DNA of 64,000 nucleotides from an uncultured bacterium (GCA_900547945.1 URIT01000004.1:147-64146), one strand, 5' to 3'. Positions 7,340 through 63,266 are shown, numbered from the stretch's first letter. Notes: generated by a model from the sequence alone, not told the origin. Numbers and translations: made by a program.

Positions 7340-7344
7340 GCGAA

Positions 7345-8205: not shown

Positions 8206-8219
8206 AGGAGGGGCTGAAG

Positions 8220-9056: not shown

Positions 9057-9086
9057 AACGAAGACAAGAAAGGAAAAAAGAAAGCC

Positions 9087-48581: not shown

Positions 48582-49876
48582 GAACCGTGAAGAAAGGGGT
48601 GCTGGCCGTGAGCCTGATGGGCGCGGTTGCGGCGGTTGCGATGCCGACGCGGCAGGAGCTTGTCGCGGCGCAGAAGGCGGTTCTGGACGCAACGGCGGCG
48701 GATGTCCGCGCGCTCAAGGAAGGGAGGACGGGGCCCGCCGCCGTCGCCGCCGCGCACCGCCTGCGCGCCGCCGGGGCGACGGCGGAGGCCGAACGGTTCC
48801 TCCTCCTCCAGGGTGCATTCAAGCTTTTCGTGAAGGCGGGTGATGCGGACGCGGCGCGGGCGACGCTGGAGGCCCTTTCGGAGGCGTTCCCCGACCTCCC
48901 TGCCGACGTGGTCGACGAGATCTGCGCGACGGTCGGCTTCCGCCTCGGGCCGGGGACGCCGTCGGCGTGGAAGGGCGGGGAGTGGGTGCCCGTTGCCCTG
49001 AAGGGGGAGGCGGAGGCCACCTTCCACTTGTCCGCCTGTCCGCCCGGCACGTTCGTTCTGGTGAAGGACACGCCGCCGATGATGAAGGATCTCAAGCCCC
49101 GGGCGTGGTGGCACACGGCGCACACGGTCCGGCTGACCTATCCGTTCTTCATCATGCGGGGGCCGCTTCCGTATGCGTTGGCGCGGGCGCTTGATCCGGC
49201 TGTGGCGAAAAAAGGGCAGGCCCGGTTTACGCCGGGAACGGAACACATCATGCCCGATCTGCCCGTCATGGAGCTTTCATGGGACGACATCCAGACGCTG
49301 GCCGCGCGGCTGAACGAGAAGGCGCGGTTGCCGTTCAGGCTGCGGGGGTTCGACGACTACGAGTTTCGCCTGCCGACGGAAGCCGAATGGCGGTACGCGA
49401 TGCGCGGGGGCACGGACGAGAAGGACTGGGGCGCGTACACCGACTGGACGAAGGAATGGGGCGGGTACTGGTGGGGGAAGCTGCCGGACGGGGCCTACTG
49501 CCCGTTTGCGCCGCTTGCGGCGATGAAGGCGGTGCGCAATCCCTGGGGGCTCTACTACCTTGGCCCGAAGACGATCTACGCCGACACGTTCCCGGCGGAG
49601 GGACTTGACGGCAGAATGGATCTCTGTTTCGCGCGCGAGGACGTGTTCCGCCATGCGGAGACGGAGGTCAACCCCGTCCGCATTCACCGCGACAAGGCCT
49701 TTGCCTATCATGTGTTCTATGCGGGCGGCGCCCCCAAGCTTTCGTCTCGGGGCATGGCATCCCAACCCTGCCCGTTCCGTTTCGTCTTCGCGCCGAAACT
49801 CTCGTCCCTCAACGTCTACCCGCGCACGGAGGAGGACGGTCCGCTCAGGACGGTCGGTCGCGCGCCCGCACGGTGA
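48578..49876 (+). CDS. Exported protein with C-terminal FGE-sulfatase (SUMF1/C-type-lectin-fold) domain
   Basis: ATGA overlap with the sigma stop. Signal peptide. RLPTEAEWRYAMRGG...NPWGLYYL motifs of the formylglycine-generating-enzyme fold. Confidence 0.7.
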   Translation: MRTVKKGVLAVSLMGAVAAVAMPTRQELVAAQKAVLDATAADVRALKEGRTGPAAVAAAHRLRAAGATAEAERFLLLQGAFKLFVKAGDADAARATLEALSEAFPDLPADVVDEICATVGFRLGPGTPSAWKGGEWVPVALKGEAEATFHLSACPPGTFVLVKDTPPMMKDLKPRAWWHTAHTVRLTYPFFIMRGPLPYALARALDPAVAKKGQARFTPGTEHIMPDLPVMELSWDDIQTLAARLNEKARLPFRLRGFDDYEFRLPTEAEWRYAMRGGTDEKDWGAYTDWTKEWGGYWWGKLPDGAYCPFAPLAAMKAVRNPWGLYYLGPKTIYADTFPAEGLDGRMDLCFAREDVFRHAETEVNPVRIHRDKAFAYHVFYAGGAPKLSSRGMASQPCPFRFVFAPKLSSLNVYPRTEEDGPLRTVGRAPAR

Positions 49877-49961: not shown

Positions 49962-50019
49962 ATGAATATTTCTGCGATGTTGAGTACTTCGTTCCGCAGA
50001 AAGATGGTATGATATTCAT
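49962..50019 (+). promoter_or_regulatory. hipB promoter/operator region: nested dyads ATGAATAT / ATATTCAT and TTCTGCG / CGCAGAA around two -10-like elements (TAGAAT 49958-49963; TGGTATGAT 50005-50013)
   Basis: Inverted repeats read directly. The second -10 lies 10 nt before ATG 50024. Confidence 0.5.
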
Positions 50020-50023
50020 CGCA

Positions 50024-50221
50024 ATGAACAAGAAGGAGATTGGTACGGCAATCGTCGAACGTCGCGATGAACTTCGCATTACGCAGGCGCGGTTGGCGCG
50101 TGTGAGCGGTGTTTCCGTGCATACGCTCTCAAATCTTGAGACAGGTGACGGTAATGTCACGCTTGATACCCTCATCAAGGTCGCGACGACGATTGGCTAC
50201 AAGATCAAGGTGGGCGTATGA
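50024..50221 (+). CDS. hipB: XRE-family HTH protein (HipB-like)
   Basis: RRDELRITQARLARVSGVSVHTLSNLETG is a Cro/C1-type HTH. 65 aa from ATG 50024 (the track ORF starts at 50009). Stop overlaps the next start (ATGA). Confidence 0.75.
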   Translation: MNKKEIGTAIVERRDELRITQARLARVSGVSVHTLSNLETGDGNVTLDTLIKVATTIGYKIKVGV

Positions 50222-50532
50222 AGCGTGGTATGGTCTACTATCGTGACATTCAGGCTGGAACGCTGGAGAAGGACGCATCGGGTTATGTGTTCCGCTATGA
50301 TGCCGCCTATTTACGCGATGCAACGCTCCCGGACATTTCGGCGACATTGCCGAAATCGGCTTGCGAGTATCGTTCAACGTACCTGTTCCCGTTCTTCGCA
50401 GGGCTTTTGGCGGAAGGTGCGCAGAAGGAGCGACAGTGTCGCGAGCTTCACATTGACGAGCGCGACCTCTTCACGCGCTTGCTGGAAACCAGTGCCTATG
50501 GGGCCATAGGAGCCGTCTATGTTACGCCTTGA
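50218..50532 (+). CDS. hipS: HipA N-terminal-subdomain protein (HipS-like)
   Basis: 104 aa. MVYYRDIQAGTLEKDASGYVFRYDAAYL...LPFFAGLLAEG matches the HipA 'couple_hipA' N-terminal domain, encoded here as a separate ORF. Confidence 0.7.
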   Translation: MKRGMVYYRDIQAGTLEKDASGYVFRYDAAYLRDATLPDISATLPKSACEYRSTYLFPFFAGLLAEGAQKERQCRELHIDERDLFTRLLETSAYGAIGAVYVTP

Positions 50533-51409
50533 CTTCACACTTGCGGATCTCAGCCTCCCGCAACAGCGGGAGACGACGCGCCGGGTCTCAATTTCCGGCG
50601 TCCAAGACAAGGTGCAACTGCATCGCCAGGGAATGCGATTTGTCCCCGTTGCGTCGGGTGGCGACTATATCCTCAAACCTGTCCCAAGTCACTCGTCCGC
50701 ACGATTCGTCTACGACATTCCCGCCAACGAGACGTTGACGATGGATATTGCCTCTGAAATCTTCGGCATTCACACGGCAGAACACGCGCTTGTCGAATTC
50801 AAGGACGGCATGCCCGCTTATTTGACGAAACGGTTCGACTTTCGCGACGGAATGAAGATTCGGCAGGAGGATTTCTGTCAGCTCTCGAACCGTAGCGAAG
50901 AGACACACGGGGACAATTACAAATACGATGCCAGCTATGAGGAGTTGGCGGGGTTGGTTCGCCGCTTCTGCCCGTCCCACGCAATTGAGAACCCGAAGGT
51001 TTTCTTTCAGATTCTCTTCAACTATGTTTTTGCAAATGGAGACGCGCACCTCAAGAACTTCTCCCTCTACGAATCGCGACAAGGCGATTACATCTTGACG
51101 CCCGCCTATGATCTTTTGAATACGTCGCTTCATTTCCCGAACGAGCCGACGGCGACAGGGCTTGATTTCTTCATGGATGGACATTATACGGCACGTTATG
51201 AGGTTTTGGGCTTCTATTCATCGGCCGATTTTCACGAACTTGCTGGTTTCTATGGCGTCTCGTCCTTGGAAGTAGACGAGATGCTGTCTGTCTTCGCACG
51301 GAAGCGTGTACAGGTCGAAGAGTCTGTGAAGACTTCGCGTCTTTCACTGGAAGCGAAAAGTCTCTACCTTGCCAAGTTCCATGACCGTCTTAAGGCCCTT
51401 GCGCAGTAA
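50519..51409 (+). CDS. hipT: HipA-family Ser/Thr kinase core lacking N-subdomain 1 (HipT-like toxin)
   Basis: 296 aa. Gly-rich loop VSISGVQDKVQL, catalytic loop NGDAHLKNFSL, followed by LTPAYDLLNT. Overlaps hipS by 14 nt. Confidence 0.8.
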   Translation: MLRLDFTLADLSLPQQRETTRRVSISGVQDKVQLHRQGMRFVPVASGGDYILKPVPSHSSARFVYDIPANETLTMDIASEIFGIHTAEHALVEFKDGMPAYLTKRFDFRDGMKIRQEDFCQLSNRSEETHGDNYKYDASYEELAGLVRRFCPSHAIENPKVFFQILFNYVFANGDAHLKNFSLYESRQGDYILTPAYDLLNTSLHFPNEPTATGLDFFMDGHYTARYEVLGFYSSADFHELAGFYGVSSLEVDEMLSVFARKRVQVEESVKTSRLSLEAKSLYLAKFHDRLKALAQ

Positions 51410-51462
51410 GGGTCGGCGATGCACGCCGCCGTTCCATTGTGTTGAACGAGGTTGATGCGGAA

Positions 51463-51473
51463 GGGGGGGGGGG
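51463..51473. repeat. G11 homopolymer
   Basis: Read directly, 54 nt downstream of the hipT stop. Confidence 0.85.
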
Positions 51474-51838
51474 CGTCCTCCGGCCGGTCAACACGGAGCG
51501 CGCGGAGTCGTGGAGATTGTCTTTCAAAGTTGGCGCGTGGCGTCCAAACGGGCCCGGTGCGCGGCGTCCGAGCTGGATTGGCGCGCGAAGTACCCGCGCC
51601 GCCCTCGGTGCGCGGCGTCGACGGCCCGGAAGAACGCCGCGCACGTGTTCCCGCACCCCGTCGCGAGGTGCCGTGCCGCCGCGAGATGAGATTCCATTGC
51701 GTAATAATCTTGAAAGGCGTCGCGGCGTATGGCGTGATGCGTTCGGCAATTGCGGCCCTCCCCGGATTCTCCTCAGGCCTATCTCGGCAACCTCAGGCAC
51801 GGCGATGAAGCAGAAGCGGACACATTCCCGGTTCTTGC

Positions 51839-51877
51839 CCATGACTTGCCTGTCAAACTCCATGACTTGCCCGTCAA
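51839..51877. repeat. Two 18-nt direct repeats CCATGACTTGCC(T/C)GTCAA with 21-bp periodicity
   Basis: Read directly (17/18 identical) in an apparently non-coding stretch. Confidence 0.7.
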
Positions 51878-52103
51878 GATCTGCATTCCCGTGCGAAGCG
51901 CGGGCGGCGGGCGATACGGCCCACGCACATTGAAAAGCATCGAGGCGTCCTTGTCCCGGTTTTGACGAGCCTTGATTCCCCTGAAGAAATCGGGACAGGG
52001 GTGAATAGAGGGGCAGGGGGCTGGGGTTCTGTGTCTTCTGTGTGTGTCCGGTTTCAGTGTGTTCAGTGGTAGAAACGGTGGAGGAGGGGCTTCCCCACGG
52101 ATA

Positions 52104-52139
52104 ACGCAGATCCGTGCTTCGCCCGACACGGATCTGCGT
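52104..52139. other. Perfect 13-bp-stem hairpin ACGCAGATCCGTG (10-nt loop) CACGGATCTGCGT
   Basis: Read directly. Confidence 0.75.
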
Positions 52140-52201
52140 GGATCCGCCTTGGTCTGCAACGGGATCAGAACAATTTTCAAAACGGACTGTCATTTGAGGG
52201 T

Positions 52202-52240
52202 GGCGCGTGCGTGTCTCTCTATGTGGCTGGTATCCCGAAG
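52202..52240 (+). repeat. Leader repeat copy A, 5' segment (82% identical to 54052-54090)
   Basis: GGCGCGTGCGTGTC.....ATGTG..TGG.ATCCCGAAG shared with copy B; separated from the rest of copy A by a 130-nt insert. Confidence 0.7.
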
Positions 52241-52370
52241 GGAGAAACGAAGGCGGATTGGAAGGTTGACCGGCGTGGGAGTTACCTCCCGGTCGATATT
52301 CTGATACACTTTCGCGCAGTTGAAAACGTTTGTCGCTGATCCGCCGGAAGACTGGTAATCATCTGATTGG

Positions 52371-52495
52371 AGTTGGCACAAGTCGTGGAGACGTGAGCCG
52401 GGGGCGCATTGTGCCCTCGTGTCCTTTCGTCCCCGCACTGTGTTCTCCCTTCGGGCATACCAGTCGCCTCGGCGGAAACGCGGTGCGGGGATGTT
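52371..52495 (+). repeat. Leader repeat copy A, 3' segment (125 nt; 3 substitutions and 1 indel versus 54091-54214)
   Basis: Base-by-base alignment by eye. Confidence 0.85.
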
Positions 52496-52582
52496 CAGAT
52501 GAAATATGCAGAATGCCATTCGGTGGCGGGACGAAGACGGGCCTCGTCTATCGGTTGAAGGAGTGCGAGACGCTGGAGGCGT

Positions 52583-52612
52583 TTGACGGGCAAGGATGAG
52601 TTCTGCTATAAT
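52583..52612 (+). promoter_or_regulatory. Sigma70-type promoter TTGACG-N18-(TGc)TATAAT for the DUF234 ATPase gene
   Basis: Consensus -35 and perfect extended -10, 45 nt upstream of GTG 52657 (GGAGG RBS). Confidence 0.7.
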
Positions 52613-52656
52613 ACCGCCATGAATTTAACGGACGTATAATTTATGGAGGTTTAGTT

Positions 52657-53976
52657 GTGAAGTTCTACAACCGGGAGAAAGAAGTCGCGTATTTGCGGGA
52701 TGTTCGTGAAAAATCGCACGTTCATGCGCGGTTTACGGTGATTACGGGACGTCGCCGTGTCGGCAAGACGCAATTGGTTCAGCAGGCCATGGGCGACGCC
52801 CCCTATCTCTATTTCTATGTCGGACGGAAGAGCGAGAAGGACTTGTGCGAGGGCTTTCAGTCTTTGATGAAGGCGGTTCTTGACGTTCCGATTGTGGGTG
52901 TCGCAACGCGATTCGAGGACTTGGCGGAGGTGATCTTTTCAGAAGCGGAGAAGCGGCCCATTACGCTGGTCATCGACGAGTTCCAGGATTTCTACCGCGT
53001 CAATCCATCCGTTTTCAGTGCGCTTGCCAATCTGTGGGATCGGCATGAAAAGACGGCCAAATTGAACTTGATCGTCTGCGGAAGCATCAACCGCCTGATG
53101 AACAGGATCTTCCGGGATGAACAGGAGCCGCTGTACGGGAGGAACACGGGCAGCCTCAGGGTCTTGCCGTTCAGGGCATCCGTTCTGAAGCGGATTCTGT
53201 CCGATCACGCACCCGGCGCTGTCAACGATGATCTTCTGGCGCTGTGGACGTTCACGGGCGGTGTTGCCCGCTATGTGCAACGGCTGATGGACGAGGGCGC
53301 GTTTACGCGGGAGGCGATGATTCGGACGATTTTCTCCGAAGGCTCTTCGTTTCTGGACGAGGGAATGTCGCTGCTGGTTCAGGAGTTCGGCCGCGACTAC
53401 GAGACGTATTTCTCGATCCTGTCGGCCGTCGCATCCGGGAATACGGAATACTCGCAAATCAAGAACATGGTCGGCACGGAGATCGGTGCGCATCTGAGCA
53501 AGCTGGAGAACGAGTATGCGCTTGTCCGGCGGAAGGTGCCGGCTTTTGCGAAGGTCAGCACCAAGAATTCGCATTATGAGATTGACGACTGCTTCTTCCG
53601 CTTCTGGTTTCGTTTCGTCTTCAAGCACCAGTACCTTGTTGAGCTGGGACGCTTTGAGCAGCTCCAGCAGCTGGTTGCACGGGATTTCGACGCCTTTTCC
53701 GGCTTCGCGCTTGAGCGGTACTTCTACTGGAAGTTCGTGGACGAATCGACGTACACGAAGATGGATTCGTGGTGGGATCGCAGGGGTGAGAACGAGATTG
53801 ACCTTGTCTGCGAAGACGAGCTCGAAAACCGTCTCGACTTCTGCGAAGTCAAGCGCGATGTACGGCGATTCGATGAAGCCGTCCTGCGTCGGAAAGCCGA
53901 GGTGTTTTTTGCGGCAAATCCCCAGAAGCGTACACGGCAGGTCGGCTATCGCGGCCTCTCGCTGCGAGACATGTAG
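52657..53976 (+). CDS. Stand-alone ATPase of the archaeal-ATPase/DUF234 family
   Basis: FYNREKEVAYL...FTVITGRRRVGKTQL (Walker A), LVIDEFQD (Walker B) and the C-terminal DUF234-like ...IDLVCEDE...CEVK nuclease-like motif. GTG start. Confidence 0.85.
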   Translation: MKFYNREKEVAYLRDVREKSHVHARFTVITGRRRVGKTQLVQQAMGDAPYLYFYVGRKSEKDLCEGFQSLMKAVLDVPIVGVATRFEDLAEVIFSEAEKRPITLVIDEFQDFYRVNPSVFSALANLWDRHEKTAKLNLIVCGSINRLMNRIFRDEQEPLYGRNTGSLRVLPFRASVLKRILSDHAPGAVNDDLLALWTFTGGVARYVQRLMDEGAFTREAMIRTIFSEGSSFLDEGMSLLVQEFGRDYETYFSILSAVASGNTEYSQIKNMVGTEIGAHLSKLENEYALVRRKVPAFAKVSTKNSHYEIDDCFFRFWFRFVFKHQYLVELGRFEQLQQLVARDFDAFSGFALERYFYWKFVDESTYTKMDSWWDRRGENEIDLVCEDELENRLDFCEVKRDVRRFDEAVLRRKAEVFFAANPQKRTRQVGYRGLSLRDM

Positions 53977-54051
53977 CATCGTGTGTGTACGGCAGCTGCC
54001 GTCGGAGGCGCGACTGAAAAAATAATCGAGATTCCGCTGTCATTCTGCGTC

Positions 54052-54214
54052 GGCGCGTGCGTGTCATGATATGTGATTGGCATCCCGAAGAGTCGGCGCA
54101 AGTCGTGGAGACGTGAGCCGGGGGCGCATGTGCCCTCGTGTCCTTTCGTCCCCGCACTGTGTTCTCCTTTCGGGCATACCAGTCGCCTCGGCGGAAACGC
54201 GGTGCGGGGATGTT
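54052..54214 (+). repeat. Leader repeat copy B (contiguous 163 nt), ending 3 nt before ATG 54218 and 18 nt before ATG 54233
   Basis: See copy A. Contains helix CCCCGCAC (54150-54157) / GTGCGGGG (54202-54209) enclosing smaller hairpins. Confidence 0.85.
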
Positions 54215-54232
54215 GTAATGAAAGGAAACAAG

Positions 54233-55759
54233 ATGGCTCAATTGGAAAAGGTGACTGGCAGGGCGCTGATCGTGGCGACCCTTTCAGTTGGTATGGTGTT
54301 TTCGGCGGCGTTGGCAGAGGACTCGTTCTTGTTCTCCGGGCCTCCGGCGGAGGCGACGGTCAATGCGCCGGAGAAACCGGCGAATGTCAAGGTCGTCTAC
54401 GGACGCGGCACGGGCGAAACGAAGGAAGAGGCCGAGAAGGACGCCTGCCGGAATGCGGTTGAATTCGCGGTCGGAACATTCATCGACAGCGAAACCCAGC
54501 TCAAGAACGAGCAGCTGATCAAGGACGAGATCCTGTCGCATAGCAACGGCTACATCGAGAAGTACGAGGTGACGGGCGCTTCGCGCAGCAAGCGCGGGCT
54601 CGGCATTGAAGTGGACGTCAAGGCCTGGGTCAAGATTCAGGAGGCGCGGAAGAAGGTGCGTGACCTTGTGCCGGGCGATGCCCAGAAAGTTGACGGCATC
54701 GGCGGCATCACGTTCGCGAACGAATCGAAGGAGCGGCGCGACAAGTCGGCCGCCGCGCTCCTCAAGAAGGAGCTGGACGGCCTCGATCCTGTCCGCCAGC
54801 TCGTCAACGTCAAGCTTGCCTCGTCCAAGCCGACCGTTCTTGAGGGCAAAGAGGCGGAAGGCTGCGCGGCAAACGAGGTCATTCTTCGTTATTACTGCCA
54901 GTTCTACTTGATGCAGGATGTCTATTTCAAGCGGTTCATGCCGAGGTTTACGCAGATCCTGGAGCAGATTTCCGTTCACAAGCCCGTCACATTCCGCCCC
55001 GTTGCCAAGCGCCTTGGTGATTATTGGAGAAGAGACAACAGCGACTGGGTCAAGGGGTTGGGGAACGTTCCTGAGAGTTTCAACCACATAGATGTCGGTC
55101 TCTCCTGTTCACAGATGGATACGCTGTTGGGGCGTGATGGTCGTGTCGTTCCGTATTTGGGCAGCTGTTTTGCCTTGATGGATTATCGTCCGTCCTTGGT
55201 CGATTTGACGAAGAAGCTGAATGGTGGCACAAAGAATAGGCCGTCGTTTTCAAATCAAAATGAACCCTCACTGGGGCGTGTCGAGGTGATTACGAAATGC
55301 AATGCGTCTCTGACGGCAGCTCGCGGCAAGGCGTACTTCTTGGCACCACAGGTCTATGCCGTGTATTTGGCCTGGTTCAAGGAGCATTTCGTTGAAAGGT
55401 GGTATTTGGACGGGAAGAGGGTACGTGCTTCGGTCGATTACCTGCTTCGTCTCATGGATAAGGAAGGCGAGGAAGTCGCGTCCCGGAAGGTGCGCCTTTC
55501 GGAAGGTGGCGTCCTGTTTTGCGAAGATCGTCAGAATGAATATGAGTGGAAACAGCGTGGAGGAATCAATAGATTTCCGCCGTGCCTTGTCTGGGGACCG
55601 TGGTTGAACAGCGGTTCCGGTTCGTCGCGTGGGCCTTCGTCGAATAATGCGCCCGTGATTCACATGACAACGGTTATCCCGATTGACATCCGCATTTCAA
55701 AGGAAGACGCGTGGTTGGTCAAGTCGGTGTCCGTCTCGTTGGCGGAGGCCGTTGATTAA
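54233..55759 (+). CDS. Exported protein A: N-terminal LPP20-like module + ~330-aa unknown domain
   Basis: Signal peptide MAQLEKVTGRALIVATLSVGMVFSAALA. VVYGRGTGETKEEAEKDACRNAVEFAVGTFIDSETQLKNEQLIKDEILSHSNGYIEKYEV resembles the LPP20/FlgP family. AAGGAAA RBS before ATG 54233 (alternative ATG at 54218). Confidence 0.7.
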   Translation: MAQLEKVTGRALIVATLSVGMVFSAALAEDSFLFSGPPAEATVNAPEKPANVKVVYGRGTGETKEEAEKDACRNAVEFAVGTFIDSETQLKNEQLIKDEILSHSNGYIEKYEVTGASRSKRGLGIEVDVKAWVKIQEARKKVRDLVPGDAQKVDGIGGITFANESKERRDKSAAALLKKELDGLDPVRQLVNVKLASSKPTVLEGKEAEGCAANEVILRYYCQFYLMQDVYFKRFMPRFTQILEQISVHKPVTFRPVAKRLGDYWRRDNSDWVKGLGNVPESFNHIDVGLSCSQMDTLLGRDGRVVPYLGSCFALMDYRPSLVDLTKKLNGGTKNRPSFSNQNEPSLGRVEVITKCNASLTAARGKAYFLAPQVYAVYLAWFKEHFVERWYLDGKRVRASVDYLLRLMDKEGEEVASRKVRLSEGGVLFCEDRQNEYEWKQRGGINRFPPCLVWGPWLNSGSGSSRGPSSNNAPVIHMTTVIPIDIRISKEDAWLVKSVSVSLAEAVD

Positions 55760-55803
55760 ACGGAATCTTGGATTTGTTCTTTCGTGACTAAGGAGAAGTA
55801 AAA

Positions 55804-57543
55804 ATGAGAAGTACAGTGATTAGGGTTGTCTTTGCGGTATCGACTGCCATTGGTGTTCGTACCGTGATGGCACAAGAGTTTGGCGAAGAAGGAACATCTG
55901 TTCCCGCCGCAGAAACCGCCGAGACGGCTGAAGTCGCAGCTACCGCAACGCCGGAATCCTTTGAACAGGTTTCGGACGGTGGTATTGCCGCCGATCAGAA
56001 GGTCGTCGAAGAAGATGTGAAGGAGGTGCCCAAGTCGGCTACTGAGCAGCTTTCCCTCTATGTCGAGGAAAAAGGCTATATGCTCGGTACGTGGGACGAA
56101 ACGAAGGATCGTATTGTTGTCCAGGGGACCGTCAAATTTGACATCGCCAATCCGGAGGTGTCGTCCGAATACATCAAGCTCCGTGCAGAGAAGATGTCTG
56201 AGCTCCTCCTAAACGCGAAGGCGCAGATCATCAGCACGATCTTCTCGTCCATGTCGGCGGAGAGATCCCTCGACATTCCTGGCAATCCGATAGCCAAGCA
56301 GGTCGCCGTTGAAAACGAGAAGGTGGTAAGGCAACTCAAGGCTTCCCGTAGGCAACTGGAGCGGCTCGGCGCACACCTTGACGAGGCAACCGCCGCTAAG
56401 AACGGTATGACCACATCCGAGTGGATGGCTTCGATTTCGGCCTGGTTCACGTCTGCCGACAAGGAGAACCTTGCCGCAAAGTACGATGCCGACAAGAAGG
56501 AGTTGTATGCCAATGCCAAGGCTGACTTTGAGCGGGCCAAGGACGAGTATGACTCGATGCTGGAGAAGGCAGACAAGATCAAGGGGCGCATCGCGAAGAC
56601 CTTGAAGAGCAGGATCGGGCTTCTGTCCTCGATGCAGATTCACGGCTGCACCGTCCTTCAGCAGGCGGACTCCGTCACGGAAAAGAACGGCAGATATCAG
56701 TACGAGATCTGCATCCTTTACTCCTGGAGCGGTGAACGTATGGCCGCCTCTCAGGCCATTCTTGCCGCCAAGCCCGTGAAGTTCAAGGCCGGCAAGAATA
56801 CGGTACAGAAGTGGCTAGGGAACAAGAAGCGTTCAGGTGCGCTCGGAGACTGGATTGGCCCACGTTCCTACATTGACAAAGACGGCAATATCTGGTTCAT
56901 CGGTATCGCCGTAGCTCCGTGCAGTGACAACGCCGACCAGGAGGAGGAAAACCTCAAAATTGCGCGGCTTGAGGCCCGTGCCGAGATCGGTTATGCCATT
57001 TATGCGGATGCGAGTACCAAGCAGGATGTAGAAAAGCTGATGCAGGGCAAGGACACGAAGGGACTTGGCGTTGCCGACGAGTACAAGGTGTTCAAGGCGT
57101 ATAGTGAACAGACGATGGAACGTTTCGAAAACCTTCAGCTCTTTGGATGCGGCAAGTTGGGCGAGTACAAGGTCAAGGATGCCACCGGACAGGATATCTA
57201 CGCGGTGGTCTTTGGCATGAATGCCACGAACGCGAAGGCGATGAAGGACATCCATCGGAAGATGCACCAGGCCGGTCTGGAAATCAACGCCCAACAGGAA
57301 TTCGAGCGTGGTCGCCAGCAACGCATGCAGCAGCAGATGAGACAGTCCCGTAATGATGCGACCGCCCGTGCCGCCGGTGCACGCCAGGCTGACAAGGAGA
57401 CCCATGAGGCCGTAGCGAAGAAACGTGCCGCCACGAAGAGGGCTGCCGGTACCAACGTGGCGCCCACCCCTTCGGAAGCGACCCAGACGAAGGGGCGGCT
57501 CCAGTCTGGAACCCGCTTCATTGCGGATGAGGACGATGAATAG
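55804..57543 (+). CDS. Exported protein B: two LPP20-like modules separated by a coiled-coil region, with a Gln/Arg/Ala-rich basic tail
   Basis: Signal peptide (..RTVMA/QE). AAGGAGAAG RBS. Modules around IVVQGTVKF...LRAEKMSELLLNAKAQIISTIF and FIGIAVAPCSD...IARLEARAEIGYAIYADAS. Confidence 0.7.
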   Translation: MRSTVIRVVFAVSTAIGVRTVMAQEFGEEGTSVPAAETAETAEVAATATPESFEQVSDGGIAADQKVVEEDVKEVPKSATEQLSLYVEEKGYMLGTWDETKDRIVVQGTVKFDIANPEVSSEYIKLRAEKMSELLLNAKAQIISTIFSSMSAERSLDIPGNPIAKQVAVENEKVVRQLKASRRQLERLGAHLDEATAAKNGMTTSEWMASISAWFTSADKENLAAKYDADKKELYANAKADFERAKDEYDSMLEKADKIKGRIAKTLKSRIGLLSSMQIHGCTVLQQADSVTEKNGRYQYEICILYSWSGERMAASQAILAAKPVKFKAGKNTVQKWLGNKKRSGALGDWIGPRSYIDKDGNIWFIGIAVAPCSDNADQEEENLKIARLEARAEIGYAIYADASTKQDVEKLMQGKDTKGLGVADEYKVFKAYSEQTMERFENLQLFGCGKLGEYKVKDATGQDIYAVVFGMNATNAKAMKDIHRKMHQAGLEINAQQEFERGRQQRMQQQMRQSRNDATARAAGARQADKETHEAVAKKRAATKRAAGTNVAPTPSEATQTKGRLQSGTRFIADEDDE

Positions 57544-58897
57544 GGCTCTCCGCTTACTGGTTCTTGCTGTCGGTGCCACGGCTTTTCCGTGTGCATCGAC
57601 AGCGGGTTCGCTCACTGAGGCTTCCAGCATTTATCGTAGGAGCTTCAGGAGTTCGCCGCCCGCAGTCTATGAGGGAGGGGCATATCTGTTTGTCATCGTT
57701 GAGGATGATGAAGAGAAGTCAAGGGATGGCAGTATCAACGACATTGTACTGGCCGGCCAGCTTGAATTGTTGGAAAGATACATTGGTGGAACAAACGGGA
57801 ATGAAATATCCCCCTTTAGCGCCAAGGTCACGGAACAATTGATGCCACTTGCAGAGTTCCAGCTCCCGGACGTGCGGCGTTATCCGGTTGAGCGCAGGCG
57901 TACGGGTGGAAAGTTTCGTGATGTTACGGCCTTTGATTTAGCGCCAATAAAGGTCGAGAGGGAGAGGGTGTCGTCTGGGAAACCGATTAAACGAACGTTC
58001 TCCGACTGGCGAGATTTGCTGTGTTCCAAGATGGAGACGCTGTCGTCATCGGAAGAGAGGGAGCGTTTCTGTTCCCTGCTAGGGGCCACGACCATGTTGA
58101 CCGCCGGTAAGGGTGGTGTAGACTGTATGGGAGACCGTGTCGATTATGCGGCAATCGCAACAGTCTCTGCGACCTGGAGTACGACGAAGGCGGATGAAAC
58201 CATGTGTACGGTAATCCTGTCCGTGTACCCAACGTTCTCTCCTGCCCTGAGATGGCTGGCCGACCGGGACGCGGCCGACGGTGATTTTGTCCGAGCACTG
58301 GTAAAGGCGTTCAAGGCCAATGCCGAAAAAGGGGATCAGGGCGCTTATATTGCATCAAGATTCAATGTAATCGTGTCAAGGACTGGTTGTTTGGCGTGGA
58401 GCGAACTCGCCCGTTTGTTTGCGGACACGCAGGAGAAATCAGAGATCTTCAAGAATGGAGATTCGATTCACAAATATGCTCTTCGGACATTTGGTCGGAT
58501 GACGGCGAGGCTGTCGCCGCAGGATGACGGAGGTGCATTCAGAGAGGCGCAGACCTTGTTTGGGCAGGGGAAGGATTTGCCGAAGATCATTCAGCTTCTC
58601 GGAAGGGCCGTGTCAGCGAATCCTGCCGACGCCGTCGCATGGCGATACTATGGCGCGGCGCTCCGCGTCGCGGGTAAGTACTTTGATGCCGTCATTGCCT
58701 ACAATGAGGCGTTGACGTTCAATCCGAAGGATTCGGTTGCGGCGATGGATGTCTGTACCGTCTATCAGAAGCTCGGATTGACAGAACTTGCCAGTGGGAA
58801 TGCATGGTATGAAATCGTCACTTCGCAAGATGGAAAATGCGTTGACAAGGCCCTGGGAATTGTTAATGAGAATTGCAAAGATGTGTTCGGGAAGTAG
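57536..58897 (+). CDS. Exported protein C with C-terminal TPR repeats
   Basis: The start overlaps the stop of gene B (ATGAATAG). Signal peptide MNRALRLLVLAVGATAFPCASTA. TPR consensus in AVAWRYYGAALRVAGKYFDAVIAYNEALTFNPKD. Confidence 0.7.
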   Translation: MNRALRLLVLAVGATAFPCASTAGSLTEASSIYRRSFRSSPPAVYEGGAYLFVIVEDDEEKSRDGSINDIVLAGQLELLERYIGGTNGNEISPFSAKVTEQLMPLAEFQLPDVRRYPVERRRTGGKFRDVTAFDLAPIKVERERVSSGKPIKRTFSDWRDLLCSKMETLSSSEERERFCSLLGATTMLTAGKGGVDCMGDRVDYAAIATVSATWSTTKADETMCTVILSVYPTFSPALRWLADRDAADGDFVRALVKAFKANAEKGDQGAYIASRFNVIVSRTGCLAWSELARLFADTQEKSEIFKNGDSIHKYALRTFGRMTARLSPQDDGGAFREAQTLFGQGKDLPKIIQLLGRAVSANPADAVAWRYYGAALRVAGKYFDAVIAYNEALTFNPKDSVAAMDVCTVYQKLGLTELASGNAWYEIVTSQDGKCVDKALGIVNENCKDVFGK

Positions 58898-58908
58898 GGG
58901 AAGTAAGC

Positions 58909-59880
58909 ATGAAGTTTGTTCTCTCGCTGTTATTGGGGGTATTGTCCGTCAAGGGGGGGCTCGCTGGGGATGGGGAGTCTGCCGTTCAGGAAGTTCGCAG
59001 GGAACTTGATGAGCGTGGCCATGTGGAAGGGTTTAACGCAGCGACCGGTGAAGTCATTGGTGTCGGGTACGCTTCAGCGGACGAGAGTCAAATCCGGTCG
59101 GTCAATGGTGATTTCGACAAGTACATTGAGCTAACGACGATTGCTCGTTCAAAGGCATTGATGGAGGTGTCAAAGGCCATCAATCCAATCGTAAGCGCTG
59201 GGCGATCACTTGAGTCTGCCAGCCGTCCTGATTCGCGCTACAGGGCGTTGTCGCGGGTTGTCAGAATGAGGACGGAGGGGTGTCCTCTTGGATGCGTTGA
59301 AGTGGCGCGAGTTCGGAAGGTTTTCCAAGGCCGGAACCAAATTGCGATTGCGCTCAAATGGAGTCTGGCACTCGAAGAGGCGATGGTGAAGTCGTTTCTT
59401 GAGCCATTGGAGATTGATGATGAAGTTTTGGCGTTGTGGGCGAGGAAGCAAGATCTTGTTTCCATGCTCGGCCCCTGGCTCTGGACGGATGGCAAGGGCG
59501 GTACATGTTTCCTTGGCATCGGTGTGTCCGAGGTCTGGGGCGAAAACGCCGTGGCGAAACGAACGGCCTTGCGGCGTGCTGCGGTACACGCAAAGAAGCA
59601 TCTCGCGTATTGCTTCCTGGAAAATCTGACGGGTGAAGAGGTCGTGACCAAGGGGGTATGCAATAAGACTTCGGAGGGTGGGACGGTCCTTGCGCCTCGG
59701 CAGTCGTTCACGTATGAAATCAATCGTAACGCACATGGCATTCTCCCTTCTGGGGCACGCCAAATCTACTCAAGCTTCGATTTCAAATCCCCGATAACAG
59801 GAAAGCCTGTCTGCGTTTGTGTCTTTGCCCTCAAGGCTGTGGACGCAAGAAGCGAGATTCGCGACAAGTTTGTAGACTGA
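58909..59880 (+). CDS. Exported protein D: two LPP20-like modules
   Basis: Signal peptide MKFVLSLLLGVLSVKGGLA. VIGVGYASADES...ELTTIARSKALMEVSKAINPIVSAG and FLGIGVSEVWGENAVAKRTALRRAAVHAKKHLAYCF. Confidence 0.7.
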   Translation: MKFVLSLLLGVLSVKGGLAGDGESAVQEVRRELDERGHVEGFNAATGEVIGVGYASADESQIRSVNGDFDKYIELTTIARSKALMEVSKAINPIVSAGRSLESASRPDSRYRALSRVVRMRTEGCPLGCVEVARVRKVFQGRNQIAIALKWSLALEEAMVKSFLEPLEIDDEVLALWARKQDLVSMLGPWLWTDGKGGTCFLGIGVSEVWGENAVAKRTALRRAAVHAKKHLAYCFLENLTGEEVVTKGVCNKTSEGGTVLAPRQSFTYEINRNAHGILPSGARQIYSSFDFKSPITGKPVCVCVFALKAVDARSEIRDKFVD

Positions 59881-60012
59881 CATGTTACCGATTCTCGATA
59901 CTGTCATTGTGTATATTGCCCATCAAGTGATTGCTTGATGCGGCCACTCTTTCCGCCTTGCGGCTCAATGAGGTATTCCCAAACAAACCAGTAATCTTCA
60001 AGGAGGCATGAA

Positions 60013-62421
60013 ATGGCGAATAGAAATAATGCGAAGACTTCGGGGGGCGTTGTTGTTGGTCAAAGAAGGGCAGGTGAATCCTGCTCGGTTGAACTATCTG
60101 TTTTTGGAGGCGTGCTCAAAGTCTCAGCAGGACGTGCCGAGTACAGTCGCTTGCGCAAGCGGTTTGAGGAACTTGCCGATGTTGAAGTCGGGAAGGCCTC
60201 GTCGAGTATCGATAAGGCCGCCGAGGATGTGGATGTATTTTGTTCCAAAGGCAACTCATGGGCTCATCGTTACATTGGCAAGGCGGTTGACCTTGCGGTT
60301 GAGATCTTGATGGAAAATCGGTGTGTTGACATTGATCATGACACGTATGCCGAGAAGTACCTAGATGCGTCACCATGGGAACATGCGTTTGAAGTTCTGC
60401 GCGACGGTGTTGCCCAGATTGACGCCGAAGAAGAGGAACGAGAACAGGGTCGGCGGGAGCGTTCGGAATATGCCTACTATGACGATGAGCAGATTGCCCA
60501 GGGGGCTAAGAACGTTGTAGGCCGCTTGTTCTATGCCGCCGTTAACTCAAGTGCGAAAACCGATCTCTACAAAAAGAATAGAAAAGCGATGTTGCATGGC
60601 ATCCATTTCACAATCAAGACGGCGGTTGATGAATTGGTGGATTGTCTTGCGGACAATGGTCATGTGTTACCTGGCGCAAAGGTTGATAGGGCTTCCGGCG
60701 AAAAGGCAGAACGCCTGTTCAATAATCTGAAGACGGGTAAACTGCCGGGAGATGCGGATCATACAGCCCGTATGGAGATTCTTTCCCTTGATCCATACCG
60801 CCGTGATTTCTATGAACATATTTACGTGAATGAAGGCGACCCGTCGGGCGAATTGTGCGCGACGGCGGAATTCTTTGGGATTTCCCTTGACGACCTCAAG
60901 AAAAAAGCGTTCAAGAAACGGTTGGGCGACTGTCCCTACGAGACGGAGGAAGAAACCATTGAGTTCCGGAACAAAGCCGTGGCGTTGGGTGAAGAACTTC
61001 ATTTTGACCCTAAGGCTAAGCTGGACGAAATTGACGGAAAGCTGCGTGCCTTTGATGAGAAGGCCAGGACAGTCGACGACCGTATGTTTGATACACGTGA
61101 GGAGGCGGCCAAGCAGCGTGAATTGTCGGAGTTCGAATCAAAGATCAATCTTGACACTGAGGAAGCGGCGATCGCCTCCAAGAAGGATCTGCAGCGGTTC
61201 ATTCTAGAACTCGGTATTGACGGAGCGTGGAAGCTGGAGCGTGTCGATGCCGCGCTTAAAAAGTTCGACGAGATTGCCCGCACTGTTGACGACAGGCTTT
61301 TCGACACACGTGAGGAAGCGGCCAAACAGCGTGAACTGTCCGAGTTCGAAAAGAGGGTCAATCTGGATACGGAAGAAAATGCCATTGCCTCGAAGAAGGC
61401 TATCGAGGATAAGATTGCCAGGCTCGGGATTGGCGACGGAGATTGGAAACTGAAACGCGTCAATGCGGCACTGAAACGGTTTGACAAAATCGCCCGTACG
61501 ACATTCGGCATTATGTTCGATACGCGGGAAGAGGCGAAGTCGGCACTTGGGGAGCGCGAACTGTTTTACAAAGGCGTCGAAAAGGCGATTGCAGATGTGC
61601 GGCAGTCGTCTTTCTATACGGGGATGGCGATTCCGGACAAGAAACTCGGAAATGCGCGTGCGGCATTCCCGATTCCCGTTGACGAGTATGTTCTTGGTCT
61701 TACAGATACGACATTGTTCGGTTCAGGCAAGACGGGACTTGCAATTACGAAGTGGGGATTTCGTTGGAAGAACGACGGATCGACGCCGACTAATGTATCG
61801 TCTCTAGCATGGGGGGATTTTGCCAACATGCCAGTGGCTCCAACGGTTGTGAAGGGCGTGATCACCTTCTCGGGCGGGATGCGGTATGCCAATGGTGGTT
61901 CGAACGTCGATGATGAAAAGATGCTCAGCGTCATTGTAACGATTCATGGGTATTGCCGGGCCGCTACATTCTTCGTGAAGAAAACGGTAGAGGAACTTGC
62001 CTCAGAAGAGGCTGGCATGTCGTTCCGCCAGAAGATGGAACGTTTGATGCAACCAATCACCGACAGGGATTTCCTGTTTGGCGGGCGGATTCCGGAGAAG
62101 AAGTTGAACAAGGCGCGGGGAACCTGTCAGGTCGATGCGGACGATACCGTTCTTGCGCTTATCGATTCCACGCTCTTCGGGAGTGCAGCAACTGCGTTAC
62201 TTCTTTGCGAAAAGGGGGTCTACTGGCATAATAAGGATAGTATTGGTAAGTGTCATATCCCTTGGGGCAAGATTGATTCCCTCAAAGACATGATCTGTAT
62301 CCCAGAACGTGGGCGGCTTGTCTTTTCGCAGGGGAGCAGTTTTGTCGCTGGATCCGCGAATGTTGATCTTGAAAAGATAAAGAACCTTATTCTTGAAATT
62401 GGAAAGTTGGCGGTGTCGTGA
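60013..62421 (+). CDS. Cytoplasmic 802-aa protein E: helical N-domain, 3 tandem ~71-aa repeats, two bacterial PH-like domains
   Basis: AAGGAGG RBS 7 nt upstream; no signal peptide. Repeats contain FDTREEAAKQRELSEFE. Two copies of (V/T)(L/V)(G/A)L(T/I)D(T/S)TLFGS..(T/A)(G/A)L.(I/L)..(W/K)G(F/V).W.N... Confidence 0.75.
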   Translation: MANRNNAKTSGGVVVGQRRAGESCSVELSVFGGVLKVSAGRAEYSRLRKRFEELADVEVGKASSSIDKAAEDVDVFCSKGNSWAHRYIGKAVDLAVEILMENRCVDIDHDTYAEKYLDASPWEHAFEVLRDGVAQIDAEEEEREQGRRERSEYAYYDDEQIAQGAKNVVGRLFYAAVNSSAKTDLYKKNRKAMLHGIHFTIKTAVDELVDCLADNGHVLPGAKVDRASGEKAERLFNNLKTGKLPGDADHTARMEILSLDPYRRDFYEHIYVNEGDPSGELCATAEFFGISLDDLKKKAFKKRLGDCPYETEEETIEFRNKAVALGEELHFDPKAKLDEIDGKLRAFDEKARTVDDRMFDTREEAAKQRELSEFESKINLDTEEAAIASKKDLQRFILELGIDGAWKLERVDAALKKFDEIARTVDDRLFDTREEAAKQRELSEFEKRVNLDTEENAIASKKAIEDKIARLGIGDGDWKLKRVNAALKRFDKIARTTFGIMFDTREEAKSALGERELFYKGVEKAIADVRQSSFYTGMAIPDKKLGNARAAFPIPVDEYVLGLTDTTLFGSGKTGLAITKWGFRWKNDGSTPTNVSSLAWGDFANMPVAPTVVKGVITFSGGMRYANGGSNVDDEKMLSVIVTIHGYCRAATFFVKKTVEELASEEAGMSFRQKMERLMQPITDRDFLFGGRIPEKKLNKARGTCQVDADDTVLALIDSTLFGSAATALLLCEKGVYWHNKDSIGKCHIPWGKIDSLKDMICIPERGRLVFSQGSSFVAGSANVDLEKIKNLILEIGKLAVS
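61021..61590 (+). repeat. In-frame tandem coding repeats (units start at 61021, 61234, 61450; periods 213 and 216 nt)
   Basis: LDEIDGKLRAFDEKARTVDDRMFDTREEAAKQRELSEFESKINLDTEEAAIASKK... / LERVDAALKKFDEIARTVDDRLFDTREEAAKQRELSEFEKRVNLDTEENAIASKK... / LKRVNAALKRFDKIARTTFGIMFDTREEAKSALGE... Confidence 0.9.
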
Positions 62422-62633: not shown

Positions 62634-63266
62634 ATGTACATGAAAAAGAGATTGGCACTGTTCGCCGTGATTGGCCTCTGCGCGGGGATGTGCGCGGCGG
62701 AGGTCGTCACGTACCGAGATGCGCAGGGGCGCATTGTCCGCACGGTGACGACGGACCGGGACGGACGGACCTCGTTTCGCGACGGGCAGGGGCGGTTGCA
62801 GGGCACGGTCGTGTACGACGGGAAGGGCAAGACGACGTACCGCGACGGTTTGGGACGAACCCAGGGAACCGTTCAGGTCGAGCCGGGCGGCCGCACCGTC
62901 TATCGCGACGCCACTGGAGGACTGCAGGGCAGCGTGACCGTTGACCGCTCCGGCAAGGTCTCGTACCGGGACGGTTCGGGACGCCTGACGGGAACGGGGC
63001 AGACGGATGCCCACGGACGGACGACGTACCGCGATTCGCTCGGACGTCTTCAGGGGTCTGCGCAGCGGTACCCGGACGGACGAATCGTCTTTCGCGACGG
63101 GGGCGGGCGGATACAGGGGACGCAATCGACGGATCGTTCCGGCAAGACGACGTACCGCGATGCCTCCGGGCGCGTCCAGCGGACATCGACGACGGACCGA
63201 AACGGCCGGACGACCTATCGCGACGGGCAAGGCCGCCTGATCGGGACCGAGACGATCCGTAGGTGA
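62634..63266 (+). CDS. Small exported protein made of nine 21-aa YD/RHS-like repeats
   Basis: Signal peptide MKKRLALFAVIGLCAGMCAA, then 9x T-x-Y-R-D-x-x-G-R-L-Q-G-T-x-x-x-D-x-x-G-(R/K). High GC again. Confidence 0.7.
   Translation: MYMKKRLALFAVIGLCAGMCAAEVVTYRDAQGRIVRTVTTDRDGRTSFRDGQGRLQGTVVYDGKGKTTYRDGLGRTQGTVQVEPGGRTVYRDATGGLQGSVTVDRSGKVSYRDGSGRLTGTGQTDAHGRTTYRDSLGRLQGSAQRYPDGRIVFRDGGGRIQGTQSTDRSGKTTYRDASGRVQRTSTTDRNGRTTYRDGQGRLIGTETIRR
62703..63263 (+). repeat. Nine in-frame 63-nt tandem coding repeats
   Basis: Read from the translation: VVTYRDAQGRIVRTVTTDRDGR / TSFRDGQGRLQGTVVYDGKGK / TTYRDGLGRTQGTVQVEPGGR ... Confidence 0.85.

Follow-up and report, generated by a model that had tools for sequence, protein, structure and literature searches.

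Genes of the cluster and their products

Within a 64,000-nucleotide stretch of DNA from an uncultured bacterium (GCA_900547945.1 URIT01000004.1:147-64146; the window), five genes, which we call g1 to g5, lie side by side on one strand. The first four encode proteins that are predicted to be exported and the fifth a protein that is predicted to stay in the cytoplasm. None of the five contains a known enzyme domain. The genes are as follows:

54233-55759, plus strand: g1, 508 amino acids, predicted to be exported; a probable LPP20-like (SHS2-type) module at about residues 52-134 and a beta-rich C-terminal part.
55804-57543, plus strand: g2, 579 amino acids, predicted to be exported; the most conserved core component, with two alpha/beta modules, a helical or coiled segment of about 100 residues and a conserved acidic C-terminal tail.
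57536-58897, plus strand: g3, 453 amino acids, predicted to be exported; probable tetratricopeptide (TPR) repeats at the C-terminus; translationally coupled to g2.
58909-59880, plus strand: g4, 323 amino acids, predicted to be exported; a paralogue of g2 that has both modules and lacks the helical insert and the tail.
60013-62421, plus strand: g5, 802 amino acids, predicted to be cytoplasmic; an N-terminal domain without a match, three repeats of about 71 amino acids and two C-terminal domains that resemble the N-terminal domain of BnzA.

All five open reading frames (ORFs) of the initial annotation are found again as the same genes in independent gene calls for 23 public metagenome contigs with an identical g5 protein. 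Reading the junctions bears out the four gaps of 44, -8, 11 and 132 nt. The overlap between g2 and g3 is 8 nt long (GACGATGAATAG) and places the g2 stop over the g3 start. The 44-nt gap between g1 and g2 contains an AAGGAG ribosome-binding site, and within the 132-nt gap between g4 and g5 an AGGAGG lies 8 nt 5' of the g5 start. The close spacing together with the stop/start overlap indicates co-translation.

The lower GC content reported for the region is also real: it falls from about 0.67 to 0.51-0.56 over approximately 50-62.5 kb of the window. In all 12 loci that we examined the GC content of the cluster is below that of its flanks, by 2-15 points. Hence, low GC is partly a trait of the family and by itself no proof of recent transfer.

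Each of the proteins g1 to g4 has a single hydrophobic stretch, located at the N-terminus; g5 lacks an N-terminal one. Export of g1 to g4 is predicted from these hydrophobic N-termini, from their conservation in homologues and from a disordered acidic linker that follows the g2 N-terminus. In the translations, a cysteine at the position expected for a canonical lipobox is missing from g1, g2 and g4, and the AFPC at the N-terminus of g3 is non-canonical.

No enzyme, NTPase or transporter domain was detected in g1 to g5 by searches of Pfam, NCBIfam, PHROGs and PADLOC, by PDB profile searches or by Foldseek, as the initial annotation had proposed by eye. For g1 to g4 nothing scores above threshold in the first four of these databases, and the same is true for all members of the g1 and g2 family alignments. 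Profile searches of PDB sequences with the g1, g2 and g5 families and with the g5 C-terminal domain gave no match. There is one weak PADLOC match, of g4 to DpdK (E=0.0056). None of the five proteins belongs to a Pfam, NCBIfam or PHROGs family, only g5 has a PADLOC match (at the domain level), and 'hypothetical protein' is the only name that was met.

The g2 family consists of 136 close matches, mostly about 45% identical and about 565 amino acids long, and of 383 representatives of 50%-identity clusters (E≤0.001). Named members are from Kiritimatiellae and Pirellula sp. In the AlphaFold2 (AF2) model of g2 (predicted local distance difference test, pLDDT, 71.8, core above 80) the two alpha/beta modules are separated by about 100 residues of long helices, while the N-terminal linker and the C-terminal tail are disordered. 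The sole significant PDB match of this model is 4QVR, the structure of FTT1539c from Francisella tularensis (Foldseek E=2e-7, prob 1.0). The two superpose with a template modeling (TM) score of 0.57 on the target over 407 aligned columns. FTT1539c is an immunodominant hypothetical protein present in outer-membrane vesicles, for which no function is given (PMC10963506, PMC4207810). Like FTT1539c, g2 is predicted to be an exported envelope protein without known domains. However, their sequences are only 14% identical, sequence profile searches of the PDB miss 4QVR, and g2 has 579 residues compared to 318, with the helical insert and the conserved acidic tail in addition. Structures of FlgT, FlgP, Lpp20 and CsgG are not among the Foldseek matches of the g2 model, and a Foldseek search of a viral structure library with this model gave no match.

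The g2 tail (window 57460-57540) ends in KGxLxxGTxxIxDDDDE in close members of the family and in GGTFSGDxxIDTDF or FGW in distant ones. It may be a docking or sorting peptide. Such a tail beside a TPR gene suggests docking, but that it docks in the TPR repeats of g3 is a weak idea, which we return to below.

The initial annotation saw one short module in three of the exported proteins and took them to be paralogues. For g2 and g4 this is correct over both modules: g2 78-478 aligns with g4 24-314 in hhalign with a probability of 99.9% (E=1.5e-36), and g4 orthologues occur in four other loci (L017, L018, L034 and L035; L numbers denote loci of our comparison). In contrast, hhalign finds no relation of g1 to g2, g3 or g4, and we reject the idea that all exported proteins are paralogous.

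The likeness to LPP20 proteins, which had been proposed by eye for this module, holds for g1 alone, and there only transitively; g2, g3 and g4 have no Pfam LPP20 match. Against Pfam LPP20 (PF02169) g1 reaches 13.1 bits (E=0.13), compared to a gathering score of 25.9 bits, and the best member of the g1 family reaches E=0.008. Segment 171-247 of a g1-like protein from Kiritimatiellia scores 25.6 bits (E=1.7e-5), just below the threshold. Residues 54-130 of g1 align with this segment in hhalign (probability 92%, E=6.7e-7). Because of this alignment to a segment that is itself close to the threshold, we call the N-terminal module of g1 probably LPP20-like, even though its score is sub-threshold.

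The AF2 model of g1 is of low confidence (pLDDT 61.7, below 50 in an insert at 83-104). Its strands span residues 52-61, 108-118 and 125-134 and its helix residues 64-80, in the order strand-helix-insert-strand-strand. The best Foldseek matches of this model in the PDB, none of them significant, are Helicobacter pylori Tip-alpha (E=0.1, with a prob of at most 0.84) and dodecin, with a TM of 0.63 on the target; 4QVR is not matched (E=1.4). Dodecin, Lpp20 and FlgT have been grouped around the SHS2-like fold of LPP20-family proteins, whose SHS2 domains are oligomerising envelope modules in FlgP and FlgT (PMC12222027). As in the LPP20-like family (PF02169/IPR024952; H. pylori Lpp20, FlgP, the FlgT N-domain), g1 probably has one module of the type beta-alpha-(insert)-beta-beta. 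It is also, like Lpp20, a predicted exported envelope protein without an enzyme domain. Unlike these proteins, g1 is 508 amino acids long with a large extra C-terminal part, lacks a lipobox and has no flagellar context. The proteins g2 and g4 cannot be placed in the LPP20-like family.

TPR repeats had been noted at the C-terminus of g3, and the support for them is weak but consistent. Several TPR models match residues 352-402, all just under threshold (TPR_17: E=7e-5, 23.2 compared to 24.4). The g3 orthologue of the Kiritimatiellia locus L013 passes the TPR_14 threshold (24.6 compared to 23.5). Full-length g3 homologues follow g2 in Kiritimatiellia, in Lentisphaeria and in a planctomycete locus.

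For g5 there are 55 homologues, none of them annotated. Its N-terminal ~330 residues have no match, its middle part consists of the three repeats of about 71 residues (DNA repeat D2), and its C-terminus is made of two domains of about 120 residues each, which both match positions 14-90 of the 544 positions of PADLOC BnzA (E=1.4e-16). The initial annotation had called these a double pleckstrin homology (PH) domain. All that is seen of it is the two matches to the BnzA N-terminal domain; g5 itself has no bacterial PH (bPH) match in Pfam, and indeed no Pfam match at all at E≤1; among 19 domain segments from the g5 family a single one matches bPH_10 (E=0.0078). There is no membrane-spanning segment in g5, and its only hydrophobic window lies inside the last domain.

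BnzA of the Bunzi defence system has a predicted lipid-interacting domain (bioRxiv 10.1101/2022.05.11.491447), and it is this N-terminal, putatively lipid-binding part that the C-terminal domains of g5 share. Unlike BnzA, g5 lacks a TerB domain (Pfam) and transmembrane helices, no neighbouring gene matches BnzB, and outside these domains (~540 residues) g5 is unrelated to BnzA. What the two proteins have in common is a domain; g5 is not a member of the Bunzi system.

Gene order in related loci

To compare loci we used tblastn, hidden Markov models (HMMs) and hhalign on neighbouring genes. One of the loci, L016, belongs to a sister strain, a human-gut Kiritimatiellota metagenome-assembled genome (MAG) in which g2 is 99% identical and the DNA about 98% identical over aligned blocks; the window itself derives from an uncultured Kiritimatiellota bacterium of the human gut. 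The order g1-g2-g3 on the same strand occurs in at least 15 loci from three phyla, Kiritimatiellota, Lentisphaerota and Planctomycetota (the window, L016, L017, L018, L013/14, L019-L026, L029-L032, L034 and L036). Recurrence of the gene order in other genomes had been set beforehand as a check. Since the order is kept across three phyla, a chance juxtaposition of these genes is excluded.

A scan of 185,579 species genomes for g2 yielded 13 loci, one per MAG and mostly from gut or rumen Kiritimatiellota and Lentisphaerota. Three of the 13 bins are labelled Gemmiger sp., Anaerovoracaceae and unclassified bacterium, and are probably mis-binned. A scan of metagenomes for g5 returned two loci only. 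The loci can be sorted by arrangement:

Type A (the window/L016, L017, L018): g1-g2-g3-g4.
Type B (at least 10 loci, for example L013, L014, L029, L031, L032): two lipoproteins, a 400-amino-acid g1-like protein, g2-like, g3-like and sometimes a 260-amino-acid protein.
Type C (L010/L011, L039): g1-like, g2-like, small lipoproteins, g5-like.
L034: g1-like, g2-like, g3-like, g4-like, YccF, a DUF805/Sel1 protein, g5-like (54% identical), DjlA.
L036 (Pirellula-like planctomycete): g1-like (32%), g2-like (30%, E=5e-58), full-length g3-like and a 346-amino-acid exported protein, in which two g4-type modules can be seen by eye.

The cluster had been described as a unit of five genes. What recurs is a core of g1, g2 and g3, with or without g4; g5 is an accessory that is absent from most loci. 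Still, the proposed link between the exported proteins and the cytoplasmic g5 is upheld by five independent co-localisations in different arrangements (the window/L016, L010/11, L034, L035 and L039). Genes like g5 are repeatedly fused or adjacent to genes for small inner-membrane proteins, namely DUF805, YccF, TM2, a 73-amino-acid membrane protein and DjlA (TerB), which fits a position of g5 at the cytoplasmic membrane face. No small membrane-protein gene was found beside g5 in the window. Taken together, these gene arrangements fit a g5 that is functionally linked to the exported proteins and is not an obligatory part of the operon.

In Kiritimatiellia the operons (type B) lie amid housekeeping genes, among them those for GlmS, an amidase, a Mur ligase, LspA and an ABC-F protein. 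A non-coding region of about 260 nt 5' of the first lipoprotein gene is highly conserved among type B operons (L013 6660-6924, L029 6380-6643, L031 6390-6654, L032 6255-6518). Rfam yields nothing for it at gathering thresholds, and it is possibly a further structured leader, in addition to the one described below for the window.

Several other genes recur 3' of the cluster or of g5-like genes: YccF, DUF805(/Sel1), DjlA (TerB and DnaJ), an ion-transport protein, an M48 peptidase and a TPR protein (L034 5183-10062, L035 6229-10905, L029 14563-18560, L031 13673-14044). Their recurrence suggests a wider conserved envelope-related neighbourhood. In one locus only, L017, g1-g4 are followed at 7912-9587 by a LpoB-family lipoprotein (E=2.9e-24) and a CsgG-like protein (E=1.2e-7).

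Probable upstream regulators, the leader hairpin and probably inserted genes

Around the cluster the window contains the following features, all on the plus strand:

46813-47970, plus strand: membrane-anchored Ser/Thr protein kinase, a probable sensor; start of the ORF uncertain, C-terminal hydrophobic segment.
47967-48581, plus strand: sigma-70 family sigma factor, similar to extracytoplasmic function (ECF) sigma factors; Pfam Sigma70_r2 and r4.
48578-49876, plus strand: FGE-sulfatase-like protein, predicted to be exported; Pfam FGE-sulfatase E=1.6e-11; start at Met72 of the ORF, read from the translation.
50010-51409, plus strand: HipBST-like toxin-antitoxin, with a HipB-like helix-turn-helix (HTH) protein, HipS-like 50218-50532 and HipT-like 50519-51409; start approximate.
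52370-52504, plus strand: first copy of a 135-nt repeat; hairpin at 52424-52498.
52657-53976, plus strand: ATPase_2/DUF234 ATPase (Pfam); PADLOC candidate PDC-S27 (E=1.5e-49).
54090-54223, plus strand: second copy of the 135-nt repeat, the leader of g1, with a hairpin (54143-54217) that stops immediately 5' of the region of the g1 start.
62634-63266, plus strand: 210-amino-acid repeat protein, predicted to be exported; nine YD-like repeats of 21 residues (63 nt, family D1), native GC content of 0.67.

The stop of the kinase gene overlaps the start of the sigma gene, and the start of the FGE protein overlaps the sigma stop by 4 nt. The kinase shares 58.5% identity with that of L010 and 36% with the Pfam-verified Pkinase of L039. 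The sigma factor is 66% identical to that of L010, which lies directly 5' of the g1-like gene, and 42% identical to that of L008. In both L010 and L008 the FGE domain is fused to the kinase.

A kinase-sigma pair is found directly 5' of the cluster in L010/11 and L039 and near g5 in L008; the pair of the window is orthologous to these. In L036 an ECF sigma/kinase pair is adjacent to the cluster in divergent orientation. The order in L039, on one strand, is kinase, sigma, g1-like, DUF805, g5-like, g1-like, g2-like. In the window the genes for HipBST and the DUF234 ATPase lie between the pair and g1.

It is established that Ser/Thr kinases control ECF sigma factors and that the adjacent target genes of these factors are conserved (PMC7826278). 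Because of this precedent, and because the pair recurs beside related clusters, we regard the cluster as the putative target of the kinase and the sigma factor. As in known kinase-controlled ECF units, a membrane kinase and a small sigma-70 protein are translationally coupled directly 5' of the cluster in several loci. The kinase of these loci comes with an FGE-like extracytoplasmic domain, either fused or encoded by a separate gene.

The leader of g1 carries a hairpin of 75 nt with a minimum free energy (MFE) of -69.5 kcal/mol (z=-3.8). The same hairpin lies 5' of the clusters in L010 (5750-5820), where the g1-like protein is only 31% identical, and in L008 (9187-9259). Its 21-nt apical sequence, TTCGGGCATACCAGTCGCCTC, is identical in L010 and has one mismatch in L008. 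One of 25 predicted pairs shows a compensatory change on both sides (A-U to G-C) and several are changed to wobble pairs, but three lineages are too few for firm covariation. Rfam has no match for the leader, and a covariance model of the hairpin found no copies among the other loci, outside the lineage of the window, L010 and L008. We consider the hairpin a candidate cis-regulatory RNA or protein-binding site of this lineage.

HipBST and the ATPase look like later insertions into the locus. The HipBST genes are recognised by Pfam (Couple_hipA 1.2e-18, HipA_C 2.6e-39; HTH_3). In L010 and L039 there is no HipBST between the sigma factor and the g1-like gene, and we judge it an insertion because the arrangement of kinase, sigma and cluster is otherwise conserved without it. 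The ATPase gene is flanked by the two copies of the 135-nt direct repeat (95-96% identical), with weaker similarity between 52187-52240 and 54037-54090. L016 has one repeat copy and no ATPase. The ATPase gene is thus a strain-variable insertion or deletion between the repeats and is not a component of the unit. A third repeat copy was not found after hipT.

The assemblies of L002, L003 and L005 break at the 135-nt repeat. ATPases of the AAA_14/DUF4143 or ATPase_2/DUF234 kind adjoin the cluster in five or six otherwise different loci (L013 13797-15101, L014 344-3601, L029 18942-19661, L039 15566-16777, L016 17605-17738 and window 52657-53976). Either a hot spot for insertions that these loci have in common or a functional link could underlie this recurrence. 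The segment of about 1.2 kb from hipT to the ATPase (window 51410-52650) has no convincing gene; the translation of a long minus-strand ORF there is implausible. The same segment is the most divergent stretch compared to L016, with 87-89% identity.

Between the strains of the window and of L002, L003 and L016 the g1 protein differs by 3.5-5.9%, whereas g2, g3 and g5 differ by 0.5-1% (a 4-10-fold difference for g1). Synonymous divergence (dS) of g1 is 0.03-0.05 compared to 0.005, the ratio of nonsynonymous to synonymous divergence (dN/dS) is approximately 0.55, and the changes fall mainly within the signal peptide and the loops 341-346 and 461-473. With dS raised as well and dN/dS at this level, we reject positive selection on g1. 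The pattern suggests recombination at the 5' end of the cluster, next to the repeat.

The 210-amino-acid repeat protein, which follows g5, matches TIGR01643 with E=0.006. A homologue that is 53% identical lies directly after the L013 cluster and another lies 4 kb downstream in L017. The gene is thus possibly associated with the cluster, in which case the unit would extend to 63266. In L006 the DNA 3' of this gene is replaced by Mu-like genes at 7133-10034 (DUF3164, TniB/AAA_22), which indicates an insertion of a transposable phage or a transposon at that border.

What the cluster may do

We propose that the cluster encodes a lineage-specific, sigma-controlled structural complex of the periplasm or outer membrane, made of exported non-enzymatic proteins and with g5 as an optional partner. 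We give this interpretation a probability of roughly 45%. The initial annotation had suggested a self-assembling periplasmic or outer-membrane scaffold, and we keep it as the best reading. The genes form a real unit of predicted exported proteins, no enzyme is among them, and their order is conserved.

In this proposal g1, g2 and g3, here together with g4, would be exported by the Sec pathway and, having no catalytic domains, would act neither as enzymes nor as transporters. They would assemble together into an envelope scaffold or surface layer component of the periplasm or outer membrane. The membrane Ser/Thr kinase and the ECF-like sigma factor would drive their expression through the leader with its conserved hairpin. 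The g5 protein would sit on the inner face of the membrane through its two PH-like domains and could possibly couple the state of the envelope complex to the cytoplasm. The sequence comparisons show how the genes are built and related, that their order is conserved, that known enzyme domains are absent and that neighbouring genes recur; export, assembly, the structural role, sigma control and membrane binding of g5 are what we infer from them.

A number of observations weigh against this proposal. Anchoring in the envelope is unexplained because g1 to g4 have neither a canonical lipobox nor a transmembrane segment. The LPP20 score stays below the Pfam threshold in every member of the g1 family (at best 25.6 compared to 25.9 bits), and confidence in the model of g1 is low (pLDDT 61.7). 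No firm tie of g2 or g4 to LPP20 was found; the best hint is an hhalign probability of 18-46% to the first module of a g1-like protein from Kiritimatiellia. As FTT1539c has no known function, the match of g2 to it gives a location at best and no mechanism. Docking of the g2 tail in the TPR repeats of g3 is weakened by clusters without g3 (L010, L039) that keep an acidic or aromatic g2 tail. Finally, g5 homologues occur without any relative of g1 to g4 in L007 and L008, and most core operons lack g5.

The main rival sees in the exported proteins factors at the cell surface or on vesicles whose action is directed outward, at the gut host or at other microbes, or which serve as decoys for phages (compare H. 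pylori Lpp20/Tip-alpha and FTT1539c). The structural neighbours are indeed antigens in outer-membrane vesicles (PMC10963506; PMC12029599), the close relatives all come from gut or rumen bacteria, and the exported proteins diverge far faster than the flanking cytoplasmic ones: between the window and L010 g1 is 31% and g2 22% identical, compared to 66% for the sigma factor and 53% for g5. The high divergence of g1 between strains points in the same direction, but with a dN/dS of about 0.55 and a raised dS it speaks for recombination and not for positive selection. A homologous cluster in a Pirellula-like planctomycete may not fit an outward role in the gut, and domain searches found no adhesin, toxin or secretion-signal domains. 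We consider this rival unlikely on balance.

Less likely again is an envelope-based defence or exclusion function against phages, which the initial annotation offered as its second alternative and in which g5 would act in the cytoplasm as sensor or effector, with the ATPase and the toxin-antitoxin as part of the same defence island. The resemblance of the two domains at the g5 C-terminus to the N-terminal domain of BnzA from the Bunzi system, the PDC-S27 match of the ATPase, HipBST upstream, type III restriction-modification and AbiEii genes near the L014 cluster and the ATPases that adjoin the cluster in five or six loci can all be read this way. However, the argument leans mostly on genes next door that lie outside the unit, and on one shared domain: the ATPase is missing in L016, HipBST interrupts a conserved arrangement, and orthologous operons of other Kiritimatiellia lie amid housekeeping genes. 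Apart from the weak DpdK match of g4, no protein from g1 to g4 matches PADLOC, and g5 lacks the TerB domain and transmembrane helices of BnzA and has no BnzB beside it. A single-copy operon that keeps its order in three phyla, usually amid housekeeping genes, is also unlike the patchy distribution of defence systems, and the g2 family was not found in viral contigs. We do not retain this role as a working explanation. The absence of the g2 family from the viral contigs scanned also led us to reject a phage origin.

The proteins of the cluster could also be accessory to a machine of the CsgG/LpoB/TolB-N type that exports through the outer membrane or is associated with peptidoglycan, such as the channel for a polymer or its periplasmic adaptor. 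LPP20, CsgG and LpoB have related folds of the alpha/beta class, periplasmic adaptors of machines like these are often TPR proteins, and in L017 an LpoB-family lipoprotein and a CsgG-like protein follow g1-g4. This neighbourhood is confined to that one locus, however; the cluster has no conserved companion gene for a beta-barrel, secretin, polymerase or substrate, and neither g1 nor g2 matches CsgG, LpoB or TolB in Foldseek. We give such a machine little credence, about as little as a role in defence.

A disc or ring of the flagellar motor, of the FlgP/FlgT/PflA/PflB type, is close to refuted. In its favour are the LPP20-like signals of g1, the TPR repeats of g3 and one fused homologue of the g2 family (P0309) that hits FlgT_N at E=9e-4, which is sub-threshold (20.1 compared to 28.8 bits). 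Yet no flagellar Pfam family occurs among the neighbours in any locus examined, the g2 model has no PDB fold match to FlgT, FlgP or Lpp20, and the g1 model has none to FlgT or FlgP. To our knowledge, no cultured member of the Kiritimatiellota or Lentisphaerota described to date is motile. More generally, profile searches do not place these proteins in any known apparatus with confidence, and the flagellar hits are the sub-threshold ones just given.

The structural complex could be part of something larger. One can imagine a three-part envelope system of the Planctomycetota-Verrucomicrobiota-Chlamydiota (PVC) bacteria, with a lattice of LPP20-like, FTT1539c-like and TPR proteins in the periplasm or outer membrane, a sensing part made of kinase, sigma factor and hairpin, and g5 reading the lattice from inside. 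The g5 protein would then work with partners of the DUF805, YccF or DjlA type, while the kinase and the sigma factor would set the production of the lattice. This extended version is speculative, and we think it improbable in its full form.

Literature searches on Bunzi, FTT1539c, the LPP20 family and ECF sigma/kinase pairs brought up nothing on these proteins, and no search was aimed at the operon itself. In its parts the operon is similar to what is known, namely LPP20-like modules, TPR adaptors and kinase-controlled ECF sigma units. There is a real chance that the operon as a whole is more distinctive than these parts.

Little is known about the envelopes of Kiritimatiellota, Lentisphaerota and Planctomycetota, and we know of no good documentation of standard envelope components in these phyla. 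Here a single-copy operon keeps its order across all three, and the g2 family alone amounts to about 380 sequence clusters. If the proteins were only variable surface antigens, the interest would be modest. If they form a structural complex, then envelope components of PVC bacteria would be named, and the Francisella antigen FTT1539c would gain its first functional context. The kinase/sigma pair and the conserved leader hairpin provide a testable regulatory circuit. Should the three-part system be true, it would constitute a new kind of envelope architecture and surveillance module in PVC bacteria.

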